From the IMG/VR virus record IMGVR_UViG_2718218309_000002: a stretch of DNA of 35,391 nt. One strand, 5' to 3'. The notes under the pieces are model-generated. The model did no database searches, was not told where the DNA came from, and saw nothing but the letters and a program-made list of their open reading frames with translations. This DNA comes from a virus. Its lineage: Duplodnaviria; Heunggongvirae; Uroviricota; Caudoviricetes. Within the stretch, counting starts at the first letter, position 1. The number at the start of each line of letters is the position of its first letter. The position numbers and the translations under genes are program-made. Shown piece after piece: positions 1 to 35,391 of this stretch.

Positions 1-900
1 TTAACGCAATAATGGACAATCTGGTGGTAATCGACAACGCAACGCCGCCGGAAGTATTTCAATATGAAAGTTTTGTCCGCTCAACGGTTCGCCATCAAGA
101 TTAAAAGTGATTTCGTGTGGGGCTTGTATATCAAACCACGACGAAGCGCCTTCGATAATATTCGGGTTATCTTCGTCAGATTTTAAGGTTGATACGAGAG
201 CCGGAAGAATTTCATCGCCGGTAAAAATGCGCAGTTGCAGCAAGCCATCGTTAATTAACGCGTTCGGACACAATTGCTGACCGCCACCGGCCTGACGCCC
301 GTTACCAATACCAATGACCAGGGCGTCACCTTGCCAGTGAAAGTTTTCACCGCGGATTTCACAACGGTCCGGTTGCAGAGTATCCATGCGCATTAAGCCA
401 TGAATGATGTAAGAGACGCCACCCAGCGCGGCTTTTAATTTTTCCGGCGTTTCTGTGGTAATACGCGTCCCAAATCCGCCTGTCGCCATATTAATAAAAC
501 AGGTTTGTTTGTTGACCTGCGCCATATCTATCGCAATGGCGTTACCGGCAATTGCCAGTTTCAGCGCCTTATCCAGTGCCTCAGGAATCCCTACACTGGT
601 GGCAAAATCATTGGCGGTTCCTAATGGCAAAATTCCCAGCGCGGGTATGTCATCCCCCTCACACTGAATCAACGCCGTAGAAACTTCATTAATGGTGCCA
701 TCGCCACCACCGGCAATCACCGTTGCGACGCCCAACTTCCGGGCCTCCTCTACATATCGTGCGGCATCGCCTTTCTCCCAGGTGACCCGCACATGGATCG
801 TCATTCCTTCCTCACGCAACAGCATAATTGCTTCGCGCAAGGGTAGATTGTCAGTACTTTTGCCATTAAGAATCAGTAAGCTGGCGGGAAATTCTGCCAT
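1..900 (-). CDS. yegS: Lipid kinase YegS (host gene, complete, 299 aa)
   Basis: Translation begins [28 protein letters not shown] with the GGGDGT diacylglycerol-kinase-type motif, matching my recollection of E. coli YegS; ATG at 898..900, stop at 1..3. Confidence 0.93.
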
Positions 901-1315: not shown

Positions 1316-1632
1316 TGAAAAAGATAGCTGCTATATCATTAATTAGTATTTTTATTATGTCTGGTTGTGCTGTGCATAATGATGAGACAAGTATCGGTAA
1401 ATTTGGTCTTGCATATAAAAGTAATATTCAGCGTAAACTCGATAACCAATACTACACCGAAGCCGAAGCTTCTTTAGCCAGGGGCAGAATATCTGGTGCA
1501 GAAAATATAGTAAAAAATGATGCAGCCCATTTCTGTGTTACTCAGGGCAAAAAAATGCAGATAGTTGACCTGAAGACAGAAGGTGCAGGATTACATGGCG
1601 TCGCTCGTCTGACATTCAAATGTGGAGAGTGA
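1316..1632 (+). CDS. yegR: Putative lipoprotein YegR (host gene, 105 aa)
   Basis: ORF-track frame 1255..1632; internal ATG at 1316 preceded by GGAAGGTGAG; MKKIAAISLISIFIMSGC is a signal peptide with a lipobox; synteny with yegS. Confidence 0.8.
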
Positions 1633-1790
1633 GAATATTTTTTGGTAAGCGTCAAACATGCGCGTTCTGGTTGTGCTTAGCCGGAACCTGTGCGAGCACG
1701 ATGCCGTTACGTGAAAGGCATCGTGCTATGAAGGGAGATTCTATCGATGTGGTCAATGGAAGACGGTGACCAGGGATAGGGCTTATGCAT

Positions 1791-8140: not shown

Positions 8141-11071
8141 TCAGGAATGAATAACCTTTCTAACCTGGAAGCTATCATTATGAGATGGGATTATTTCTCC
8201 TTTGAAAATAAGCCCTTCTCTCAAATACTGCCTGCTTTCAGAGGAAAATATTGTTACGTGGAAAAATATATCTACAGGGAGTTTGTCACAACTACAGAAT
8301 CCATATCCTCGTTGTGGAAAGTATCTTTTAATGATGCACTCCCCACTGATTGCTTCAACGTTTGGTGATTCTTTGCTATAAATATGACTAATCACCATGC
8401 CTATCTCTGTTCTGGAAATGTCACACATCAAAGTGTCGCCATCAACGACGGAATCTATATTATATTGTTTTAATAAATTTTGAGAAATATCGATGGGCCC
8501 ATCAATGTCATTAACAATTAGATATCCAAGGCCACGCTCAACATCATAGCTATCTACAATTGCCCTAGCATGTTTTTTTACGATGCCTAGTTTATAAATG
8601 TCGCCAAGAGTATTCTCTGGTGGTTCGCTTTCATCATATCTATTTTGTTTAAAGACTAATAGTCGATTGATTAACTCTTTTTGGCATTCATATTTTTCAT
8701 GTGTTATCTCATTGCTAATATAAACAGAGTCTTCAGATATTAAATACTCTAGAAATAGATTTCTAATATTGTACATTTTAGAGATGTGATTGCCTTTGGA
8801 AGCATAAGTATCTTTTATTTTATTTGCGATAGAACTGTCGGTGATCGCTGTTGTTAATGCCATTTGATAGAAGTAAACGCTATTACGAGATGCGAGCTTT
8901 AAATGTGCTCTACCTTTATAAGAAATTGCTAATTTCTGATTTGATGAGAGTGTAGTTGATGACATATCATAGGGTTCTATTAATTTTGCCATAATTAAGC
9001 TCTCTAAAGCTTTATCGACAGCTAGTTCTGTTGCTCCTAAAGCATCGAAATAACTGCTGATAGATTGTACGCTTAAATGTTTATCCTCAATGCTTTTTCC
9101 AGGCACTTGAATGGAGTTAAGTAAAGTAAGGATTCTTAACGCTTGCAATGGTGATTGTCTTACTTGACTATCAACTTGGAATATAGGATATATTTCTGGG
9201 ATGTCACCATTTTTATAAACTTCATAATCACCGCGAATTAACGCGTCCATGAAGCGAGTGAAATTTATCGAAGGAAGTTCACCACTAATATAAGATTTTA
9301 TCAAGTCCTCTATTTTAATTGCAGGGGATGTGATTATTCTTTTTGATAATAATAATGTTCTGCGTATATTATAGTTGGCAAGCTCACCAAGAGTTTGTGA
9401 TGTGTAATCATGATTCACAAAAATATTTTCAATCACTTTAGAAAATTTATTTATATCTTCAATGGAAATTTTAATACCTTTTGATAAAAGATAGCTTTTC
9501 TTTTGTTCATTAGTATCTTTATTGTTAAGTTTTGATGTGATGAAGTTAATTCGCTTTCTGAATACTTCCCGTGGGGACGGAGTTGGTAGAAAAAATGATT
9601 TTGATTGATAGATGCTAAATATATCTGTCTTGGAGAAAATCCAAGCTGATTTATCTGTCACGGGGAAAATAACAAGGCAGTGTTTAATGTTTTTTTTAAT
9701 TGAATTGCTAAACTGGAAGACTTTTGTTTTAAAGTCAAGTGTGAATTCATCAGTGTTATCTACGACTATTATTGGAAGCATTTTTCTATTGCTTACAACA
9801 TTGTGAAGGATGCGTTTTAAATATCCCTCTCGATCATTTTCAACAGCTTCATCTAAATAACGTCCAAATTTTTCCTTGAACTCATCTTTACTTCTATTGT
9901 AAAGAGCTGCGTCCGCTCCTCTTGATTTTCTTTTATATTCATTGTGATAAAGTCCAAGGAGATCATTCCATTCAGGTACGCCGTCCTTGTAAAGCTGGGT
10001 CTCAAGGGTTTTTATTATTTCTTCAGTCATCCAATCTAGAACTGTATCTTCTCGCCCTGTAGCTTCTAAGCAGTTTATTTTAATAAGTAAGCATCGTTCT
10101 CTAATCGTTTTATTAAGGGTGCGACTGAAAAAACGGTCTAAAAAAGTCGACTTCCCAGAGCCAGTTGGTCCAACTATAAAAACGGATTGTTCTGACTCTA
10201 GATTTATATCAGACTCAATATTTGACATTATTAAATCAGAAAGCTCATCTCCAACTTTATTTTTATTATAGTTTATATTTGACAAGACGCTAGTTGTTAT
10301 TTTCTCAAGTGAATAGTCTGCAATTCTACTTTCATATGATTCAACAAAACATTCCATCATCATCTCGTCATCTCCCTCTAATCGAGAGAAGAAACTAGAG
10401 AATACCCTTTCTAAATCATAAGCCATATCACTTTTTCTTGTTATTTTTATATCAGATCCAATGATTGGGGCTGTTAATTCATTATTTAACAATAAACGTT
10501 TGTTGTGAATATCATCAAATATAGTGTTATACAATCTTTTGTTAAATGCTTCTTTTGATAATAATTCATAGAACACGCTAAATGATTTTTCGACTGCCTC
10601 GATACTAGGGAATACAATTGCCTCTTTACTTTTGAAGTTTTCACCAGGTATAAATGTTTTGAATATTACCCAACATAACCCATCAGTTAGAATAGAAAGA
10701 GGTATGCCATTTGGCGATGCGTAGCTAAATGCCTGGTTAATTCCTGTCTCGCATTTCTTTAAAGCAGAACCTGATATTTTTAAATGTCTTACAGTGTTTT
10801 TTTGAGCTGTTTCAACTTCTAAAATGCCGATTTTTTTGGCTTCGACAACAAAGGAGGGATGATCATCAGTGGAAAGAATGTAGTCAGAGAATCCATTGTC
10901 ATGGGCAGTTTCACAAGCAATATCAGAGTGCATCCATCCAAGCGTCTCTGTTAATATGCGAGTTATGATTTGAATTTTAGCATCTTCTTCTGATTGGATT
11001 TTTGTGATGTTATGATTAACATCACTCATAATTTTTAAGAATTTTTTTTCGCTGGAATCTAAACTAGTCAT
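8141..11071 (-). CDS. Candidate anti-phage defence protein (976 aa): N-terminal PD-(D/E)xK nuclease-like domain, central P-loop NTPase, C-terminal cold-shock-like OB domain
   Basis: Single uninterrupted ORF in the A-to-cos slot. Residues 55-80 GFSDYILSTDDHPSFVVEAKKIG fit a PD-(D/E)xK / HsdR-N-like nuclease core; residues 301-309 GPTGSGKST form a Walker A (nt 10145..10171); residues 434-442 IIVVDNTDE are a candidate Walker B; residues about 908-976 (nt 8144..8350) resemble a cold-shock domain. Strongly AT-rich relative to the flanking phage genes. Confidence 0.85.
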   Translation of the reverse strand: MTSLDSSEKKFLKIMSDVNHNITKIQSEEDAKIQIITRILTETLGWMHSDIACETAHDNGFSDYILSTDDHPSFVVEAKKIGILEVETAQKNTVRHLKISGSALKKCETGINQAFSYASPNGIPLSILTDGLCWVIFKTFIPGENFKSKEAIVFPSIEAVEKSFSVFYELLSKEAFNKRLYNTIFDDIHNKRLLLNNELTAPIIGSDIKITRKSDMAYDLERVFSSFFSRLEGDDEMMMECFVESYESRIADYSLEKITTSVLSNINYNKNKVGDELSDLIMSNIESDINLESEQSVFIVGPTGSGKSTFLDRFFSRTLNKTIRERCLLIKINCLEATGREDTVLDWMTEEIIKTLETQLYKDGVPEWNDLLGLYHNEYKRKSRGADAALYNRSKDEFKEKFGRYLDEAVENDREGYLKRILHNVVSNRKMLPIIVVDNTDEFTLDFKTKVFQFSNSIKKNIKHCLVIFPVTDKSAWIFSKTDIFSIYQSKSFFLPTPSPREVFRKRINFITSKLNNKDTNEQKKSYLLSKGIKISIEDINKFSKVIENIFVNHDYTSQTLGELANYNIRRTLLLSKRIITSPAIKIEDLIKSYISGELPSINFTRFMDALIRGDYEVYKNGDIPEIYPIFQVDSQVRQSPLQALRILTLLNSIQVPGKSIEDKHLSVQSISSYFDALGATELAVDKALESLIMAKLIEPYDMSSTTLSSNQKLAISYKGRAHLKLASRNSVYFYQMALTTAITDSSIANKIKDTYASKGNHISKMYNIRNLFLEYLISEDSVYISNEITHEKYECQKELINRLLVFKQNRYDESEPPENTLGDIYKLGIVKKHARAIVDSYDVERGLGYLIVNDIDGPIDISQNLLKQYNIDSVVDGDTLMCDISRTEIGMVISHIYSKESPNVEAISGECIIKRYFPQRGYGFCSCDKLPVDIFFHVTIFSSESRQYLREGLIFKGEIIPSHNDSFQVRKVIHS

Positions 11072-11283: not shown

Positions 11284-11302
11284 GGCGAGGCGGGGAAAGC
11301 AC
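11284..11302. other. cos site: 19-nt P2 cohesive-end sequence GGCGAGGCGGGGAAAGCAC
   Basis: Exact match to the P2 cohesive-end sequence as I recall it; located downstream of Q, where P2 has cos. Confidence 0.8.
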
Positions 11303-23143: not shown

Positions 23144-25189
23144 ATGAGCACAAAATTCAGAACCGTTATCACCACTGCCGGTGCAGCAAAGCTGGCAGCG
23201 GCAACCGCACCGGGAGGGCGGAAGGTCAACATTACCACGATGGCCGTCGGGGATGGCGGTGGTAAATTGCCTGTCCCGGATGCCGGACAGACCGGGCTTA
23301 TCCATGAAGTCTGGCGACATGCGCTGAACAAAATCAGCCAGGACAAACGAAACAGTAATTATATTATCGCAGAGCTGGTTATTCCGCCGGAGGTGGGCGG
23401 TTTCTGGATGCGTGAGCTTGGCCTGTACGATGATGCGGGAACGTTAATTGCTGTGGCGAACATGGCCGAAAGTTATAAGCCAGCTCTTGCCGAAGGTTCA
23501 GGGCGTTCGCAGACCTGCCGCATGGTCATCATCGTCAGCAGTGTGGCCTCAGTGGAGCTGACCATTGACACCACAACGGTGATGGCGACGCAGGATTACG
23601 TTGATGACAAAATTGCAGAACATGAACAGTCACGACGTCACCCGGACGCCTCGCTGACAGCAAAAGGTTTTACTCAGTTAAGCAGTGCGACCAACAGCAC
23701 GTCTGAAACACTGGCCGCAACGCCGAAAGCGGTAAAGGCCGCGTATGACCTGGCTAACGGGAAATATACCGCACAGGACGCCACCACAGCGCGAAAAGGC
23801 CTTGTCCAGCTTAGTAGCGCCACCAACAGCACGTCTGAAACGCTCGCCGCAACACCAAAAGCCGTTAAGACGGTAATGGATGAAACGAACAAAAAAGCGC
23901 CATTAAACAGCCCTGCACTGACCGGAACGCCAACGACGCCAACTGCGCGACAGGGAACGAATAATACTCAGATCGCAAACACGGCTTTCGTTATGGCCGC
24001 GATTGCCGCCCTTGTAGACTCGTCGCCTGACGCACTGAATACGCTGAACGAGCTGGCGGCGGCGCTGGGCAATGACCCGAATTTTGCTACCACCATGACT
24101 AATGCGCTTGCGGGTAAGCAACCGAAAGATGCTACCCTGACGGCGTTGGCGGGGCTTGCTACTGCGGCAGACAGGTTTCCGTATTTTACGGGGAATGATG
24201 TTGCCAGCCTGGCAACCCTGACAAAAGTCGGACGGGATATTCTGGCTAAAGCGACCGTTACTGCCGTTATCGAATACCTCGGTTTGCAGGAAACGGTAAA
24301 CAGGGCCAGGAACGCGGTGCAAAAGAATGGCGATACCTTGTCCGGTGGGCTTACTTTTGAAAACGACTCAATCCTTGCCTGGATTCGAAATACTGACTGG
24401 GCAAAGATTGGATTAAAAAATGATGCCGACAGCGATACTGATTCATATATGTGGTTTGAAACAGGTGACAACGGCAATGAATATTTCAAATGGAGAAGTC
24501 GCCAGAGCACCACAACAAAAGACCTGATGAATCTTAAATGGGATGCTCTGTATGTTCTTGTTAAAGCCCTTTTCAGCAGTGAAGTAAAAATATCTACAGT
24601 CAATGCACTGAGGATATTTAATTCATCTTTTGGGGCTATTTTTCGCCGTTCTGAAGAAAACCTGTATATCATCCCTACACGAGAAAATGAGGGTGAAAAT
24701 GGAGATATTGGGCCATTAAGGCCATTCGGCATCAACTTAAGAACAGGAGTTGTGTCTGTTGGTAATGGTGCCAGGATTGATGGCGGGCTGGCACTTGGCA
24801 CGAATAACGCGTTGGGTGGGAACTCTATTGTTCTTGGTGATAACGATACCGGATTTAAACAAAATGGCGATGGTAATCTGGATGTTTATGCTAATAACGT
24901 CCATGTTATGCGCTTTGTTTCCGGAAGCATTCAAAGTAATAAGACCATAAATATTACGGGGCGTGTTAATCCCTCGGATTACGGTAACTTTGATTCCCGC
25001 TATGTGAGAGATATCAGACTTGGTACACGTGTTGTGCAGACCATGCAGAAAGGCGTGATGTATGAAAAGTCAGGCCATGCAATTACGGGGCTTGGTATTG
25101 TCGGTGAAGTTGATGGCGATGATCCGGCAGTATTCAGACCAATACAAAAATACATCAATGGCACATGGTATAACGTTGCGCAGGTGTAA
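23144..25189 (+). CDS. H: Tail fibre protein gpH (681 aa), mosaic
   Basis: N-terminal MSTKFRTVITTAGAAKLAAA region is P2 gpH-like; internal duplicated motif QLSSATNSTSETLAATPKAVK; AT-rich C-terminal part from about 24300. Confidence 0.92.
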   Translation: MSTKFRTVITTAGAAKLAAATAPGGRKVNITTMAVGDGGGKLPVPDAGQTGLIHEVWRHALNKISQDKRNSNYIIAELVIPPEVGGFWMRELGLYDDAGTLIAVANMAESYKPALAEGSGRSQTCRMVIIVSSVASVELTIDTTTVMATQDYVDDKIAEHEQSRRHPDASLTAKGFTQLSSATNSTSETLAATPKAVKAAYDLANGKYTAQDATTARKGLVQLSSATNSTSETLAATPKAVKTVMDETNKKAPLNSPALTGTPTTPTARQGTNNTQIANTAFVMAAIAALVDSSPDALNTLNELAAALGNDPNFATTMTNALAGKQPKDATLTALAGLATAADRFPYFTGNDVASLATLTKVGRDILAKATVTAVIEYLGLQETVNRARNAVQKNGDTLSGGLTFENDSILAWIRNTDWAKIGLKNDADSDTDSYMWFETGDNGNEYFKWRSRQSTTTKDLMNLKWDALYVLVKALFSSEVKISTVNALRIFNSSFGAIFRRSEENLYIIPTRENEGENGDIGPLRPFGINLRTGVVSVGNGARIDGGLALGTNNALGGNSIVLGDNDTGFKQNGDGNLDVYANNVHVMRFVSGSIQSNKTINITGRVNPSDYGNFDSRYVRDIRLGTRVVQTMQKGVMYEKSGHAITGLGIVGEVDGDDPAVFRPIQKYINGTWYNVAQV

Positions 25190-29360: not shown

Positions 29361-31800
29361 CAATGTAAAATTACAGGTATTGCTCAGGGCTGTTGACCAG
29401 GCATCCCGCCCGTTTAAATCCATCCGTACAGCGAGCAGGTCGCTGTCGGGTGATATCCGGGAAACACAAAAATCACTGCGCGAGCTGAACGGTCAGGCAT
29501 CCCGTATTGAGGGATTCCGCAAGACCAGTGCACAGCTCGCCGTGACTGGTCATGCACTTGAAAAGGCACGGCAGGAGGCCGAAGCCCTTGCCACACAGTT
29601 TAAAAACACCGAGCGTCCGACCCGTGCTCAGGCGAAAGTGCTGGAATCCGCAAAGCGAGCAGCGGAGGACTTACAGGCGAAATATAACCGCCTGACGGAT
29701 TCCGTTAAACGCCAGCAGCGGGAACTGGCTGCTGTGGGAATTAATACCCGCAATCTTGCACATGATGAGCAGGGGCTGAAAAACCGTATCAGTGAAACCA
29801 CCGCGCAGCTTAACCGGCAGCGTGACGCGCTGGCGCGTGTCAGTGCGCAACAGGCAAAACTTAACGCAGTAAAACAGCGTTATCAGGCCGGAAAGGAACT
29901 GGCCGGAACTATGGCCTCAGTGGGCGCTGCCGGTGTGGGGATTGCGGCGGCGGGAACGATGGCCGGTGTTAAGTTGCTGATGCCCGGTTATGAGTTTGCG
30001 CAGAAAAACTCAGAATTGCAGGCCGTGCTCGGCGTGGCAAAAGACTCCGCCGAAATGGCCGCACTCCGCAAGCAGGCGCGCCAGCTCGGTGACAATACTG
30101 CCGCCTCGGCGGATGATGCAGCCGGTGCACAGATTATCATTGCGAAAGCCGGTGGAGATGCTGCGGCTATTCAGGCGGCAACGCCGGTCACGCTGAATAT
30201 GGCACTGGCGAATCAGCGGTCGATGGAAGAAAACGCGCAACTGTTGCTGGGGACTAAGGCATCCTTTCAACTGTCAAATGATGATGTCAGTCATGTGGGC
30301 GACGTGTTGTCGGCAACGATGAATAAGTCGGCGGCTGATTTTCAGGGACTCAGTGATGCACTGACTTATCTCGGCCCGGTTGCGAAGACGGCAGGTGTAA
30401 GTCTTGAGCAGGCAGCAGCCATGACAGGTGTGCTGCATGACAATAACATCAGGGGGTCAATGGCGGGTACGGGTAGCAGTGCCGTTGTCACCCGATTACA
30501 GGCTCCGACAGGGAAAGCATGGGATGCACTCAAAGAGCTTGGCGTTAAAACCTCGGACAAAAAGGGAAATATGCGCCCGTTGTTCACCATTCTGAAAGAG
30601 ATTCAGGCCAGCTTTGATAAACACAAGCTGGGAACGTCTCAGAAGGGGGAATACCTTAAAACCATTTTTGGTGAGGAAGCCCTGAAATCAGCGAACGTTT
30701 TACTGGCAGCGGCAGCAAGCGGAAAACTGGATACGCTGACCGCCACGCTGAAAGCCTCGGACGGTAAAACGGAAGAGCTGGTTAAAATCATGCAGGATAA
30801 CCTCGGCGGTGACTTTAAGGAGTTTCAGTCCGCTTATGAGGCGGTGGGGACTGACCTGTTTGACCAGCAGGAAGGCGCACTGCGTAAGCTCACACAGACG
30901 GCCACAAAGTATGTGTTAAAACTCGACGGCTGGATCCAGAAAAACAAATCACTGGCGTCAACCATCGGCCTCATTGTCGGTGGCGCACTGGCGCTGACTG
31001 GCGTCATCGGTGCCATTGGCCTCGTAGCCTGGCCGGTTATCACCGGCATCAATGCCATCATCGCGGCAGCAGGCGCAATGGGGGCAATCTTCACGACGGT
31101 TGGCAGTGCTGTTATGACGGCCATCGGGGCGATTAGCTGGCCGGTTGTTGCCGTGGTGGCCGCCATTGTCGCCGGGGCGTTGCTTATTCGTAAATACTGG
31201 GAGCCTGTCAGCGCATTCTTTGGCGGTGTGGTTGAAGGGCTGAAAGCGGCATTTGCGCCGGTGGGGGAACTGTTCACGCCACTTAAACCGGTGTTTGACT
31301 GGCTCGGTGAAAAGTTACAGGCCGCGTGGCAGTGGTTTAAAAACCTGATTGCCCCGGTCAAAGCCACCCAGGACACCCTGAACCGTTGCCGTGACACGGG
31401 TGTCATGTTCGGGCAGGCACTGGCTGACGCGTTGATGCTGCCGCTTAATGCGTTCAACAAACTGCGCAGTGGTATTGACTGGGTACTGGAAAAACTCGGT
31501 GTCATCAACAAAGAGTCAGACACACTTGACCAGACCGCCGCAAGGACTAATGCCGCCACGTATGGCACCGGTGGTTATATTCCGGCGACCAGCTCTTATG
31601 CAGGCTATCAGGCTTATCAGCCGGTCACGGCACCGGCTGGCCGCTCTTATGTGGACCAGAGTAAAAACGAATATCACATCAGCCTGACCGGTGGTACTGC
31701 GCCGGGGACACAGCTTGACCGCCAGTTACAGGATGCGCTCGAAAAATACGAGCGGGATAAACGTGCGCGTGCCCGTGCCAGCATGATGCATGACGGTTAA
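29353..31800 (+). CDS. T: Tail tape measure protein gpT (815 aa)
   Basis: 815 aa with a coiled-coil N-terminus and a hydrophobic Gly/Ala-rich central region; P2 gpT position. Confidence 0.95.
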   Translation: MSDNVKLQVLLRAVDQASRPFKSIRTASRSLSGDIRETQKSLRELNGQASRIEGFRKTSAQLAVTGHALEKARQEAEALATQFKNTERPTRAQAKVLESAKRAAEDLQAKYNRLTDSVKRQQRELAAVGINTRNLAHDEQGLKNRISETTAQLNRQRDALARVSAQQAKLNAVKQRYQAGKELAGTMASVGAAGVGIAAAGTMAGVKLLMPGYEFAQKNSELQAVLGVAKDSAEMAALRKQARQLGDNTAASADDAAGAQIIIAKAGGDAAAIQAATPVTLNMALANQRSMEENAQLLLGTKASFQLSNDDVSHVGDVLSATMNKSAADFQGLSDALTYLGPVAKTAGVSLEQAAAMTGVLHDNNIRGSMAGTGSSAVVTRLQAPTGKAWDALKELGVKTSDKKGNMRPLFTILKEIQASFDKHKLGTSQKGEYLKTIFGEEALKSANVLLAAAASGKLDTLTATLKASDGKTEELVKIMQDNLGGDFKEFQSAYEAVGTDLFDQQEGALRKLTQTATKYVLKLDGWIQKNKSLASTIGLIVGGALALTGVIGAIGLVAWPVITGINAIIAAAGAMGAIFTTVGSAVMTAIGAISWPVVAVVAAIVAGALLIRKYWEPVSAFFGGVVEGLKAAFAPVGELFTPLKPVFDWLGEKLQAAWQWFKNLIAPVKATQDTLNRCRDTGVMFGQALADALMLPLNAFNKLRSGIDWVLEKLGVINKESDTLDQTAARTNAATYGTGGYIPATSSYAGYQAYQPVTAPAGRSYVDQSKNEYHISLTGGTAPGTQLDRQLQDALEKYERDKRARARASMMHDG

Positions 31801-33538: not shown

Positions 33539-33757
33539 ATGTTTCATTGTCCTTTATGCCAGCATGCCGCACATGCGCGTACAAGTCGCTATATCACTGA
33601 CACGACAAAAGAGCGTTATCACCAGTGCCAGAACGTGAATTGCAGCGCCACGTTCATCACTTATGAGTCGGTACAGCGATACATCGTGAAGCCGGGAGAA
33701 GTCCACGCCGTAAGACCGCACCCGTTGCCGTCAGGGCAGCAAATTATGTGGATGTAA
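33539..33757 (+). CDS. ogr: Late-gene transcription activator Ogr (zinc finger, 72 aa)
   Basis: ORF-track frame 33476..33757; ATG at codon 22 gives MFHCPLCQHAAHARTSRYITDTTKERYHQCQNVNCSATF with a CxxC...CxxxxC zinc finger. Confidence 0.95.
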   Translation: MFHCPLCQHAAHARTSRYITDTTKERYHQCQNVNCSATFITYESVQRYIVKPGEVHAVRPHPLPSGQQIMWM

Positions 33758-33769
33758 TTACAAACAGGA

Positions 33770-33795
33770 AGCCCCTCAGTCGAGGGGCTTTTTTG
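33770..33795 (+). terminator. Intrinsic terminator after ogr
   Basis: AGCCCCTC-AGTC-GAGGGGCT hairpin followed by TTTTTTG immediately after the ogr stop. Confidence 0.7.
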
Positions 33796-33858
33796 TCGAT
33801 GTGGTCAATGTGTGGACGTGACCAGAAATAAATCCTTTTATTTCATTGTATTACGCGT

Positions 33859-33885
33859 AAAAAATAAGCCCGTGTAAGGGAGATT
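33859..33885. repeat. attR: 27-bp P2-type att core AAAAAATAAGCCCGTGTAAGGGAGATT
   Basis: Exact direct repeat of 1791..1817, about 100 bp downstream of ogr. Confidence 0.85.
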
Positions 33886-34029
33886 ACACAGGCTAAGGAG
33901 GTGGTTCCTGGTACAGCTAGCATTTTATGGGTTATGTTTTTCAGCGAAACGGATGATAACCTTAATAAATACAGCTGTATGTGATCGGTTTCTAAGAATT
34001 TTCCATCCGGGAAAAATAATCGAAATTAA

Positions 34030-35391
34030 TCACTTACCGTGGGGATTACGCGTGGTTTCCCCGGAGAAATTACGCATCAGCAGCGCGTAATTGAGCTCAA
34101 GATCCTGCGGGACCGGGAGCCACACAGTATAACCATCGCCTGGTGCTATCGGCATAGCTTCGCCTTTGGCGTTTTCCATGTGCTCAAGGGTAAAATTAAT
34201 GTTGCCTTGCGGCGTCATCAGCTCAAGGCTGTCGCCAACGGAGAATTTATTTTTCACCGCTACCGCCGCGAGGTCCCCCTTGCGCTCACCGGTAAACTCA
34301 CCAACAAACTGCTGGCGGTCAGAAACTGAATAACCGTATTCGTAGTTCTGATAATCGTCGTGAGTATGACGACGCAGGAAACCTTCGGTATAGCCACGAT
34401 GCGCCAGACCTTCCAGAGTTTCCAGCAGGCTGGTATCGAACGGTTTTCCCGCAGCGGCGTCATCGATAGCTTTGCGGTAAACCTGTGCGGTGCGTGCACA
34501 ATAGTAGAAAGATTTGGTACGACCTTCGATTTTCAGCGAATGCACGCCCATTTTGGTCAGGCGTTCTACATGGGCGATGGCGCGCAGATCTTTCGAGTTC
34601 ATGATGTAAGTGCCGTGCTCATCTTCAAACGCGGTCATATACTCGCCCGGACGCTGGGCCTCTTCGATCATAAACACTTTGTCGGTTGGTGCGCCGATAC
34701 CCAGCGTCGGCTCAACATTTTGCACCGGAATCGGCTCGTACTTGTGTACGATGTTGCCAACATCATCTTCTTTCCCTTCCTGGACGTTGTACTCCCAGCG
34801 GCAGGCGTTGGTGCAGGTGCCCTGGTTCGGGTCGCGCTTGTTGATATAGCCAGAGAGCAGGCAGCGACCGGAGTAGGCCATGCACAGCGCGCCGTGAACG
34901 AAGATCTCGATCTCCATATCCGGCACCTGATTGCGGATCTCTTCAATCTCTTCCAGCGACAGCTCGCGAGAGAGGATCACGCGGGTCAGGCCCATTTGCT
35001 GCCAGAATTTCACCGTCGCCCAGTTCACGGCGTTAGCCTGCACCGAAAGGTGGATCGGCATTTCAGGGAAGTGCTCACGCACCAGCATAATCAGCCCTGG
35101 ATCGGACATAATCAGCGCATCCGGCCCCATTTCCACCACCGGTTTCAGGTCACGGATAAAGGTTTTCAGCTTGGCGTTGTGCGGTGCAATGTTGACCACG
35201 ACATAAAACTTTTTCCCCAGCGCGTGGGCTTCATTGATGCCGAGCTGAAGATTTTCGTGGTTGAATTCGTTGTTGCGCACACGCAGGGAATAACGCGGCT
35301 GGCCCGCATAAACAGCATCTGCGCCATAAGCGAAAGCGTAACGCATATTTTTCAGCGTTCCCGCCGGGGAAAGGAGTTCCGGTTTAAACAT
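34030..35391 (-). CDS. yegQ: U32-family peptidase-like protein YegQ (host gene, 453 aa, complete)
   Basis: Begins MFKPELLSPAGTLKNMRYAFAYGADAVYAG, matching my recollection of E. coli YegQ; the ATG is the last three bases of the window. Confidence 0.93.
   Translation of the reverse strand: MFKPELLSPAGTLKNMRYAFAYGADAVYAGQPRYSLRVRNNEFNHENLQLGINEAHALGKKFYVVVNIAPHNAKLKTFIRDLKPVVEMGPDALIMSDPGLIMLVREHFPEMPIHLSVQANAVNWATVKFWQQMGLTRVILSRELSLEEIEEIRNQVPDMEIEIFVHGALCMAYSGRCLLSGYINKRDPNQGTCTNACRWEYNVQEGKEDDVGNIVHKYEPIPVQNVEPTLGIGAPTDKVFMIEEAQRPGEYMTAFEDEHGTYIMNSKDLRAIAHVERLTKMGVHSLKIEGRTKSFYYCARTAQVYRKAIDDAAAGKPFDTSLLETLEGLAHRGYTEGFLRRHTHDDYQNYEYGYSVSDRQQFVGEFTGERKGDLAAVAVKNKFSVGDSLELMTPQGNINFTLEHMENAKGEAMPIAPGDGYTVWLPVPQDLELNYALLMRNFSGETTRNPHGK

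Follow-up and report, generated by a model that had tools for sequence, protein, structure and literature searches.

Why should host DNA on the outer side of a prophage attachment core resemble the attachment arm of the phage? The question was raised by a 35,391-nucleotide stretch of E. coli DNA (the window), in which a preliminary description had noted a hairpin, a partial copy of the att core and a P-arm-like segment just left of attL, and had suggested a relic of an older P2-like occupant or a rearranged secondary att site. Open reading frames (ORFs) and matches to annotated genomes gave the gene order yegS-yegR, P2-like prophage, yegQ/trhP, an arrangement that we take to be locI, the preferred site of P2. 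The left host gene is yegS, encoding a lipid kinase (1-900, minus strand; ORF, and yegS annotation in matching genomes), followed by yegR, encoding a small lipoprotein (1318-1632, plus strand; annotated start MKKIAAIS, mechanical ORF from 1255; PF27694:YegR). The right host gene is yegQ, or trhP (34030-35391, minus strand; ORF and annotated genomes). Between them the prophage runs from the integrase at the left to D and ogr at the right.

The prophage is bounded by two plus-strand cores, attL (27 nt, 1791-1817) and attR (33859-33885), which share one sequence, that of the annotated P2 attP core. The integrase ORF occupies 1897-2910 on the minus strand, and its 3' end contains the Int sites of the P' arm, TGTGGACA, at 1906-1913 and 1917-1924, according to the P' arm annotation of P2. 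The cohesive-end sequence of cos, GGCGAGGCGGGGAAAGCAC, lies at 11284-11302 (plus strand). At the right end, ogr (33539-33757, plus strand; ORF with mechanical start 33476, and P2 annotation) is followed on the same strand by the ogr/late-operon terminator, a hairpin and T-run at 33770-33795 (P2 terminator annotation 24265-24288), and by an intact P arm at 33796-33858, in which, by the P2 annotation, Int arm sites precede an IHF region. This arm is identical to that of P2 at 58 of 63 positions. The cos-adjacent hotspot of the resident prophage (8141-11071, minus strand) holds a single 976-aa ORF, possibly a defence-type cargo gene. A window repeat between 1319-1356 and 9486-9523 (D11), the latter copy inside this gene and on the other strand, was dismissed as an A/T-rich chance match.

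The arm-like segment was found where the preliminary description had placed it, at 1744-1773 on the plus strand, and matched 33796-33825 without gaps at 24 of 30 positions. Pairwise alignment of the flank (1695-1790) with the P-arm region (33758-33858), a check proposed in that description, gave a local score of 22 compared to 7.5 ± 1.3 for shuffled sequences (z = 11.3), a similarity far beyond chance. The score was reached in 0 of 5000 and 0 of 2000 shuffles, and in 1 of 2911 other window segments. The similarity extended past the span first noticed: TTATGCAT beside attL matches TTACGCGT beside attR (repeat D10), and the two arms remain collinear as far as the core, save for a 16-nt gap. The geometry is that of an attR, with the arm directly left of the core, on the same strand and collinear, and with B' at the right in empty sites.

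Annotated P2 has the ogr terminator, the Int P-arm site, the IHF site (24324-24357) and the core in that order, and 1744-1773 aligns with P2 24293-24320, annotated as 'protein_bind Int, P arm' with the sequence TCGATGTGGTCAATGTGTGGACGTGACC. Arm sites of the P2 type are direct repeats with the consensus tgTGGaCa (PMC3448106). The first arm repeat, TGTGGTCA, is intact in the host and fits this consensus, and the second matches it at 5 of 8 positions; the TGTGGACA repeats are common to the P arm and the P' arm (1906-1924). Positions 1744-1773 are thus a putative relic of the Int arm-type region, with its first repeat intact and its second degenerate, and 1774-1790 (plus strand) would be a shortened relic of the IHF-site part, 16 nt less than in the phage. 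A functional Int/IHF module, with two tgTGGaCa repeats and an IHF site at native spacing, was not found in the flank, which holds one intact repeat. No extant phage in the collections had an arm nearer to the host version than that of P2.

The att core coincides with the left half of the yegQ intrinsic terminator. Core plus B' arm (33861-33894, minus strand) is predicted to fold at -15.9 kcal/mol into a hairpin with 11 bp in the stem and 6 nt in the loop, with UUAUUUUUU behind it (z = -5.1 for attR, -5.7 for the empty site), placing a stem-loop and then a U-tract directly 3' of yegQ. At attL, folding produced no such hairpin. Citrobacter and Salmonella carry a perfect version of it, and the core/terminator of C. 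koseri is identical at 25 of 27 positions, without an arm relic. Because the fold lies directly downstream of yegQ and is kept in Citrobacter and Salmonella, P2 appears, as judged from sequence, to integrate into the yegQ terminator and to rebuild it at attR. Some attL junctions have different P' arms beyond ...GTAAGGG, which indicates that several phage lineages use the same core and terminator, with crossover left of the last core bases.

Two further observations concern the core. At position 1803 (and 33871) the window has a C, so that the terminator stem contains a G-U wobble. A T at position 1803, and with it a perfect stem as in the Citrobacter and Salmonella hairpin, is found in ST131 and the lineage of SCPM-O-B-8794. 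The C is the allele of P2 attP and may mark the half of the core that came from the phage. The attL junctions L038, L046, L053, L094 and L109 from IMG/VR differ in sequence after ...GCCCGTGTAAGGG or ...GCCCGTGTA, and divergent sequences beyond the attL core of some lysogens include CGTTTTTCAGGGTAGG, CGTTTTTATACCCC and CCCGCCCTTTGAG.

The flank is not peculiar to the lysogen. In strain 2013C-3181, whose site is unoccupied, the DNA from yegR to yegQ was identical to the window minus the prophage, and the flank through the core was found in 5417 of 5426 complete E. coli genomes (5388 of 5426, about 99%, at a coverage of at least 80%). It had been argued beforehand that the same flank in strains with an unoccupied site and no P2 history would point to a host-encoded element. 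The flank is formally there in unoccupied sites, but an absence of P2 history is not claimable for any E. coli.

K-12-type genomes have the same flank with few substitutions, followed by 18 nt of the core and the last 213 nt of gene D, and after this D remnant by ogrK, an intact P arm, the core and yegQ. The comparison with the K-12 yegR-ogrK-yegQ region, also proposed in the preliminary description, therefore placed the old flank immediately left of a younger D'-ogrK remnant, and the order old flank - truncated core/D' - ogrK - intact arm - core - yegQ presents the decay proposed below while still in progress. The cryptic remnant, presumably an occupant of P2 locI, was reportedly described by Barreiro and Haggard-Ljungquist in 1992. 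The arrangement ogr-arm-core-yegQ, as prophage or as remnant, was present in about 1121 genomes.

Less-deleted forms of the arm relic were found among 78 occupied left flanks from IMG/VR, which comprised 34 sequence variants. The 212-nt variants L098, L107, L064 and L090, together with L024 from RefSeq, have 12 more arm nucleotides, GGGATCAATCCGTATTTACAGC..., and in the best-preserved variant, L098, the relic measures 59 nt, where the phage arm has 63, and agrees with it at 48 of 57 aligned positions. In variant L057 the core is adjoined by the phage-type TTACGCGT. Homologous recombination of the fossil arm with the resident one was considered and rejected: chimeric queries (host flank + phage arm + B', and ogr + host-type arm + B') found no recombinant in the 5426 genomes.

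Relics of the arm were also found in other lineages. In SCPM-O-B-8794 (L007), a divergent strain labelled E. coli, the flank is shared up to ...AACCTGTGCGA (window position 1694) and then differs, and beside the core lies CGTAACCAGAAACAAATCTTTTAATTCAATTGGTTACGTAT, a nearly full-length core-proximal arm of 41 nt. In Salmonella (L017), a terminator-like hairpin followed by TGTGGTCAAT... and ...TTATTGATTGTACGC stands left of the core, and this relic follows the P2 arm collinearly over its full length (score 22.5, z = 9.8, 0 of 3000 shuffles); no significant similarity was detected between the Salmonella and E. coli relics. In C. koseri, yegS is separated from the terminator by 105 nt without arm-like sequence, as expected of an ancestral state in which the arm is absent, and the C. 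amalonaticus spacer (L019:4790-4900) contains only an ERIC-like repeat. These comparisons covered one Salmonella and two Citrobacter genomes in addition to the divergent Escherichia lineage. Since the relics are closer to the phage arm than to each other, and since a relative with a pristine site exists, we infer repeated deposition from phage to host, and it is also by inference that rounds of occupation and decay are counted.

The spacers of these relatives have features of their own. The ERIC-like repeat of C. amalonaticus matches many places in Salmonella chromosomal contigs that are filed in the phage collection, and the sequence GTGACCAGGG, shared between the flank and the C. amalonaticus spacer, was set aside as coincidental, being part of this multi-copy repeat. 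In the Salmonella genome (CP019409; L017:2126-4388), the DNA that separates yegS from the arm relic and yegQ terminator encodes an SseK/NleB-like effector and a CesT-like chaperone and contains a 111-aa ORF; in Salmonella too, the yegS-yegQ spacer is an insertion hotspot. A Logan contig (SRR10749232_241; L016:142-3517) has cdtA-cdtB-cdtC beside yegS, where E. coli has yegR; its YegS is 90% identical to that of E. coli, and the contig stops short of yegQ. Since cdt-V is reported from P2-like prophages (Svab et al. 2013), these cdt genes could be another cargo-only fossil in the spacer.

A second phage-like piece lies 50 nt upstream of the arm relic. Positions 1637-1694 (plus strand) match 186 30517-30574 at 43 of 58 positions (74%; score 28, z = 15, 0 of 3000 shuffles), with a weak BLAST match as well, and are interpreted as a relic of the cos-proximal right end of a 186-like phage of the P2 family. 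The homology of the SCPM-O-B-8794 segment reaches the last base of the 186 genome (E = 5e-8; z = 25.6), and this segment also matches the genome ends of 186-like phages from Salmonella, Erwinia and Yersinia. The two pieces keep the prophage order, right end ... P arm - core, so that the arm relic does have other phage-derived sequence nearby in the order expected of a remnant.

The 186-like piece is directly preceded by yegR and by the decayed remains of a second lipoprotein gene (gene 2). P2-like phages have their main hotspot for accessory genes beside cos, between gpA and gpQ (PMC13586616). Because of this cos-side hotspot position and the 186-like piece directly downstream, yegR and the second gene may be former phage cargo. 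Demonstrable cargo yegR is not: its matches in the phage collection, in IMG/VR and in PHROG 21109 are prophage calls that overshoot into the flank. Searches found no independent phage copy of yegR or of the second lipoprotein gene, and no relatives of the latter in IMG/VR. Records filed as phage that carry host flank (yegR, arm relic) include ON470606.1, AY639599.1, PHROG 21109 and about 80 IMG/VR contigs, and the YegR 'phage' protein family is probably a prophage-boundary artefact.

Several genomes differ in this part of the flank. E. coli FDAARGOS_1077 (L027:1560-1625) has lost yegR between two 11-bp direct repeats, TCTGGTTGTGC, one in the lipobox codons of yegR and the other in the 186-like segment, with arm relic and core intact. 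In B2/ST131 genomes (L003:2885-3054; L009:4322-4642), 170 bp extra after yegR represent the decayed 5' part of the second lipoprotein gene. This gene encodes 106 aa with a weak DUF4156 match; Cedecea-like genomes have an intact copy behind yegR, with the pair in a different genomic context.

Between the 186-like piece and the arm relic lie 49 nt (1695-1743) that comprise the hairpin, a 10-mer and CTA. Significant similarity was found neither to the resident prophage, where 78 of 200 shuffles scored as well, nor to the 186 end, the SCPM-specific segment or Rfam. The hairpin at 1695-1727 (AGCACGATGCC-GTTACGTGAAA-GGCATCGTGCT) is as it had been described, with a perfect 11-bp stem and an 11-nt loop, and its RNA is predicted to fold at about -21 to -25 kcal/mol (z = -4.35 versus shuffles). 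It has no T-run on either strand, 0 terminator-like sites were predicted in 1200-2000, and Rfam covariance models gave zero matches at E <= 1 in 900-2000. Among strains the stem changes are mostly C-to-T, which retains G-U pairing on the plus strand, and no compensatory double changes were seen among the flank variants. Comparisons with the prophage and the 186 end detected no relation of the hairpin to phage. The region 1255-1830 occurs at a median of 1 place per genome, unlike a dispersed REP, ERIC or MITE repeat. Derivation of 1695-1790 from the decayed 3' end of the second lipoprotein gene was ruled out (z <= 2.3); an origin in that gene does hold for the first bases that follow yegR and for the additional 170 bp of B2/ST131 strains.

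The 10-mer AAGGGAGATT at 1731-1740 (plus strand) equals the last 10 nt of the att core, as had been reported, and has just two other copies in the window, at 1808 and 33876, which form the ends of the att cores. A 10-nt word common to flank and core has a chance probability of 0.0044 in a post hoc test. The 10-mer is polymorphic among strains (AAGGGAGATT, AAGGAGGATT in K-12 and B2-type genomes, and AAGGGGGATT), the K-12 and B2-type alleles match the core at 8 of 10 positions, and it also aligns under the 3' half of the ogr terminator and T-run at 8 of 14 positions. Conserved similarity over the length of a core was not found: 10 of 27 nt match as a block and 15 of 27 overall. The match to the core is probably coincidental, and the proposal of a partial att-core copy or a rearranged secondary att site is unsupported, the 10-mer being polymorphic and its neighbouring bases unlike the core. 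Both hairpin and 10-mer are outside the reach of the model set out below.

We consider it likely that 1744-1790 is the fossil P arm of a P2-family attP, left by a decayed earlier prophage at the same site. A P2-like phage would have inserted in the left half of the yegQ terminator, placing P arm - core - B' (attR) beside yegQ. If this prophage was then lost by deletion, without Int/Cox excision, the attR would stay with its core intact and serve as the 'attB' of the next phage, whose integration would leave the fossil arm on the host side of attL, as in the window. The 186-like piece at 1637-1694, followed by P arm - core, is arranged as it would be after a deletion of the entire late region, from cos to ogr, and the two pieces would then form one fossil. 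Of the alternatives first put forward, the relic of an older P2-like occupant is favoured by the match to the Int arm site, the collinearity, the less-deleted variants, the 186-like piece, the differently decayed copies in a divergent Escherichia and in Salmonella, and the absence from C. koseri.

Most of what was looked for in a remnant was found here. No phage genes or pseudogenes were found in the spacers of E. coli, SCPM-O-B-8794, Salmonella or Citrobacter (tblastn with all prophage ORFs, E < 0.01). Between yegS and yegR there was no attL remnant, blastn of 901-1330 against phages returning only host-flank records, so that the fossil has no recognisable left edge. The best reading is that the flank is a species-wide fossil of one or more older P2-family prophages, that the 'attB' of E. 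coli is an old attR, and that the K-12 D'-ogrK remnant is a younger layer produced by the same process and stacked on the old one.

The resemblance could be due to chance or low complexity in principle, and the small size of the segment, but nothing more, speaks for this; with the alignment score never equalled in 5000 shuffles (z = 11.3), the position and orientation relative to the core correct and independent relics in two other lineages, we give it practically no credence. The similarity might also have arisen in the opposite direction, if P2 had captured its P arm from the host flank of attB by aberrant excision. The core is clearly host-like, since it is the yegQ terminator and is largely kept in C. 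koseri without an arm relic, but the arm is a phage property. It has Int arm-type repeats that recur in the P' arm, and it is still common (about 77-99% identity) to phages whose match to the window stops about 13 nt before the core and whose own core therefore seems to differ. In hosts, the arm is found in degenerate, shortened and lineage-specific versions, none of them in C. koseri, and the E. coli and Salmonella flanks differ more from each other than from the phage arm. By the heterobivalent mechanism of the integrase, replacement of the P arm with plain host DNA would moreover deprive the phage of arm sites that it needs for integration. Capture from the host is thus highly improbable.

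A ghost prophage with both ends preserved would explain the 10-mer as well, AAGGGAGATT then being the right end of an older attL core at a tandem or secondary att site. The exact match of 10 of 10 positions and its low chance probability agree with this, a clean internal deletion running from attL to the ogr terminator would give the observed succession of 10-mer, 3 nt, arm and core, and the K-12 deletion has one end inside an attL core. Against it stand the alleles of the 10-mer (GGGAG, GGAGG, GGGGG), of which those of K-12 and B2-type genomes differ from the core at two of 10 positions, the match of the 17 nt to its left to the core at only 5 positions, and its second, equally weak reading under the ogr terminator; as an attL it would also leave the 186-like piece outside, to the left. 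We regard a ghost prophage as unlikely. The same low likelihood is given to a present-day function, either as a leftover Int arm-type site by which P2 integration or excision would be helped or tuned, or as part of a yegR 3' UTR element that includes the hairpin. Among 23 distinct flank variants, the block 1737-1767 is the longest invariant run (31 nt), exceeds the runs within the core and covers the intact arm repeat (P about 0.012, post hoc and from mostly related, occupied sites), which is a hint of constraint, and the hairpin stem keeps its pairing through G-U changes. The lack of compensatory changes, Rfam matches and a terminator signature, and the degenerate second arm repeat and IHF region, argue against a function, which would in any case be compatible with a fossil origin and leave that origin unchanged. 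Somewhat less doubtful, although still improbable, is a wider form of the fossil attR explanation, in which the whole yegS-yegQ spacer would be the skeleton of an ancient P2/186-family prophage, with yegR and the second gene as cargo, 1637-1694 as right end, 1744-1817 as attR, and 1737-1767 still binding Int and aiding the site preference of P2. If so, the preference of a phage for its site would have been created by the fossil of its predecessor.

On the favoured explanation, an earlier prophage that decayed to its attR, the classical preferred site of P2 would be the yegQ terminator plus the worn arm of an earlier P2-family prophage and not naive host DNA. The locus offers a series of decay at one site, from the pristine C. 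koseri through arm-only relics and the K-12 D'-ogrK remnant to a full prophage. Arm-like flanks of this kind can mislead both the assumption that the shortest interval is the ancestral attB and the calling of prophage boundaries from att repeats, and residual arm sites at attB may affect the choice or efficiency of integration. The fossil arm is no novel type of system: att sites are already known to harbour remnants, and the older, gene-free layer at the P2 site is only modestly new. No earlier description of this layer was found in the accessible literature, although Yu 1989 and Barreiro 1992 may contain one, and no paper in the literature searched links P2-like phages with yegQ.

Among known systems, the P arm of P2 attP shares sequence and order with the relic: TCGATGTGGTCAATG...GTGACCAG, an A/T-rich region, TTAyGCrT and the core. 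The relic differs from that arm in its degenerate second repeat, GGAAGACG where P2 has TGTGGACG, and in an IHF region that is 16 nt shorter, or 4 nt shorter in the rarer variants. The 186-like piece has its counterpart in the right end of 186, although mainstream E. coli lacks the last 50 nt before cos and cos itself; the resident P2-like prophage has in common with 186 only the last ~35 nt of the cos-proximal region.

The closest relative of the feature is the cryptic P2 remnant of K-12 (D' pseudogene yegZ, ogrK, attR), which lies at the same locus in the same orientation, arm - core - yegQ, and originated in the same mode, from a prophage cut down by deletion that left an attR with a full core. 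That remnant is young, retains ogrK, 213 nt of D and an intact arm, and is confined to some strains, whereas the feature described here is older, gene-free and shortened, is about 75-85% identical to the arm and is present in about 99% of E. coli. At attB sites that overlap terminators or tRNA 3' ends, the phage likewise carries the 3' end of the host element, which integration restores. The site described here differs from such attB sites, and from grounded prophages in general, in that its 'empty' state retains the arm DNA of a former occupant.
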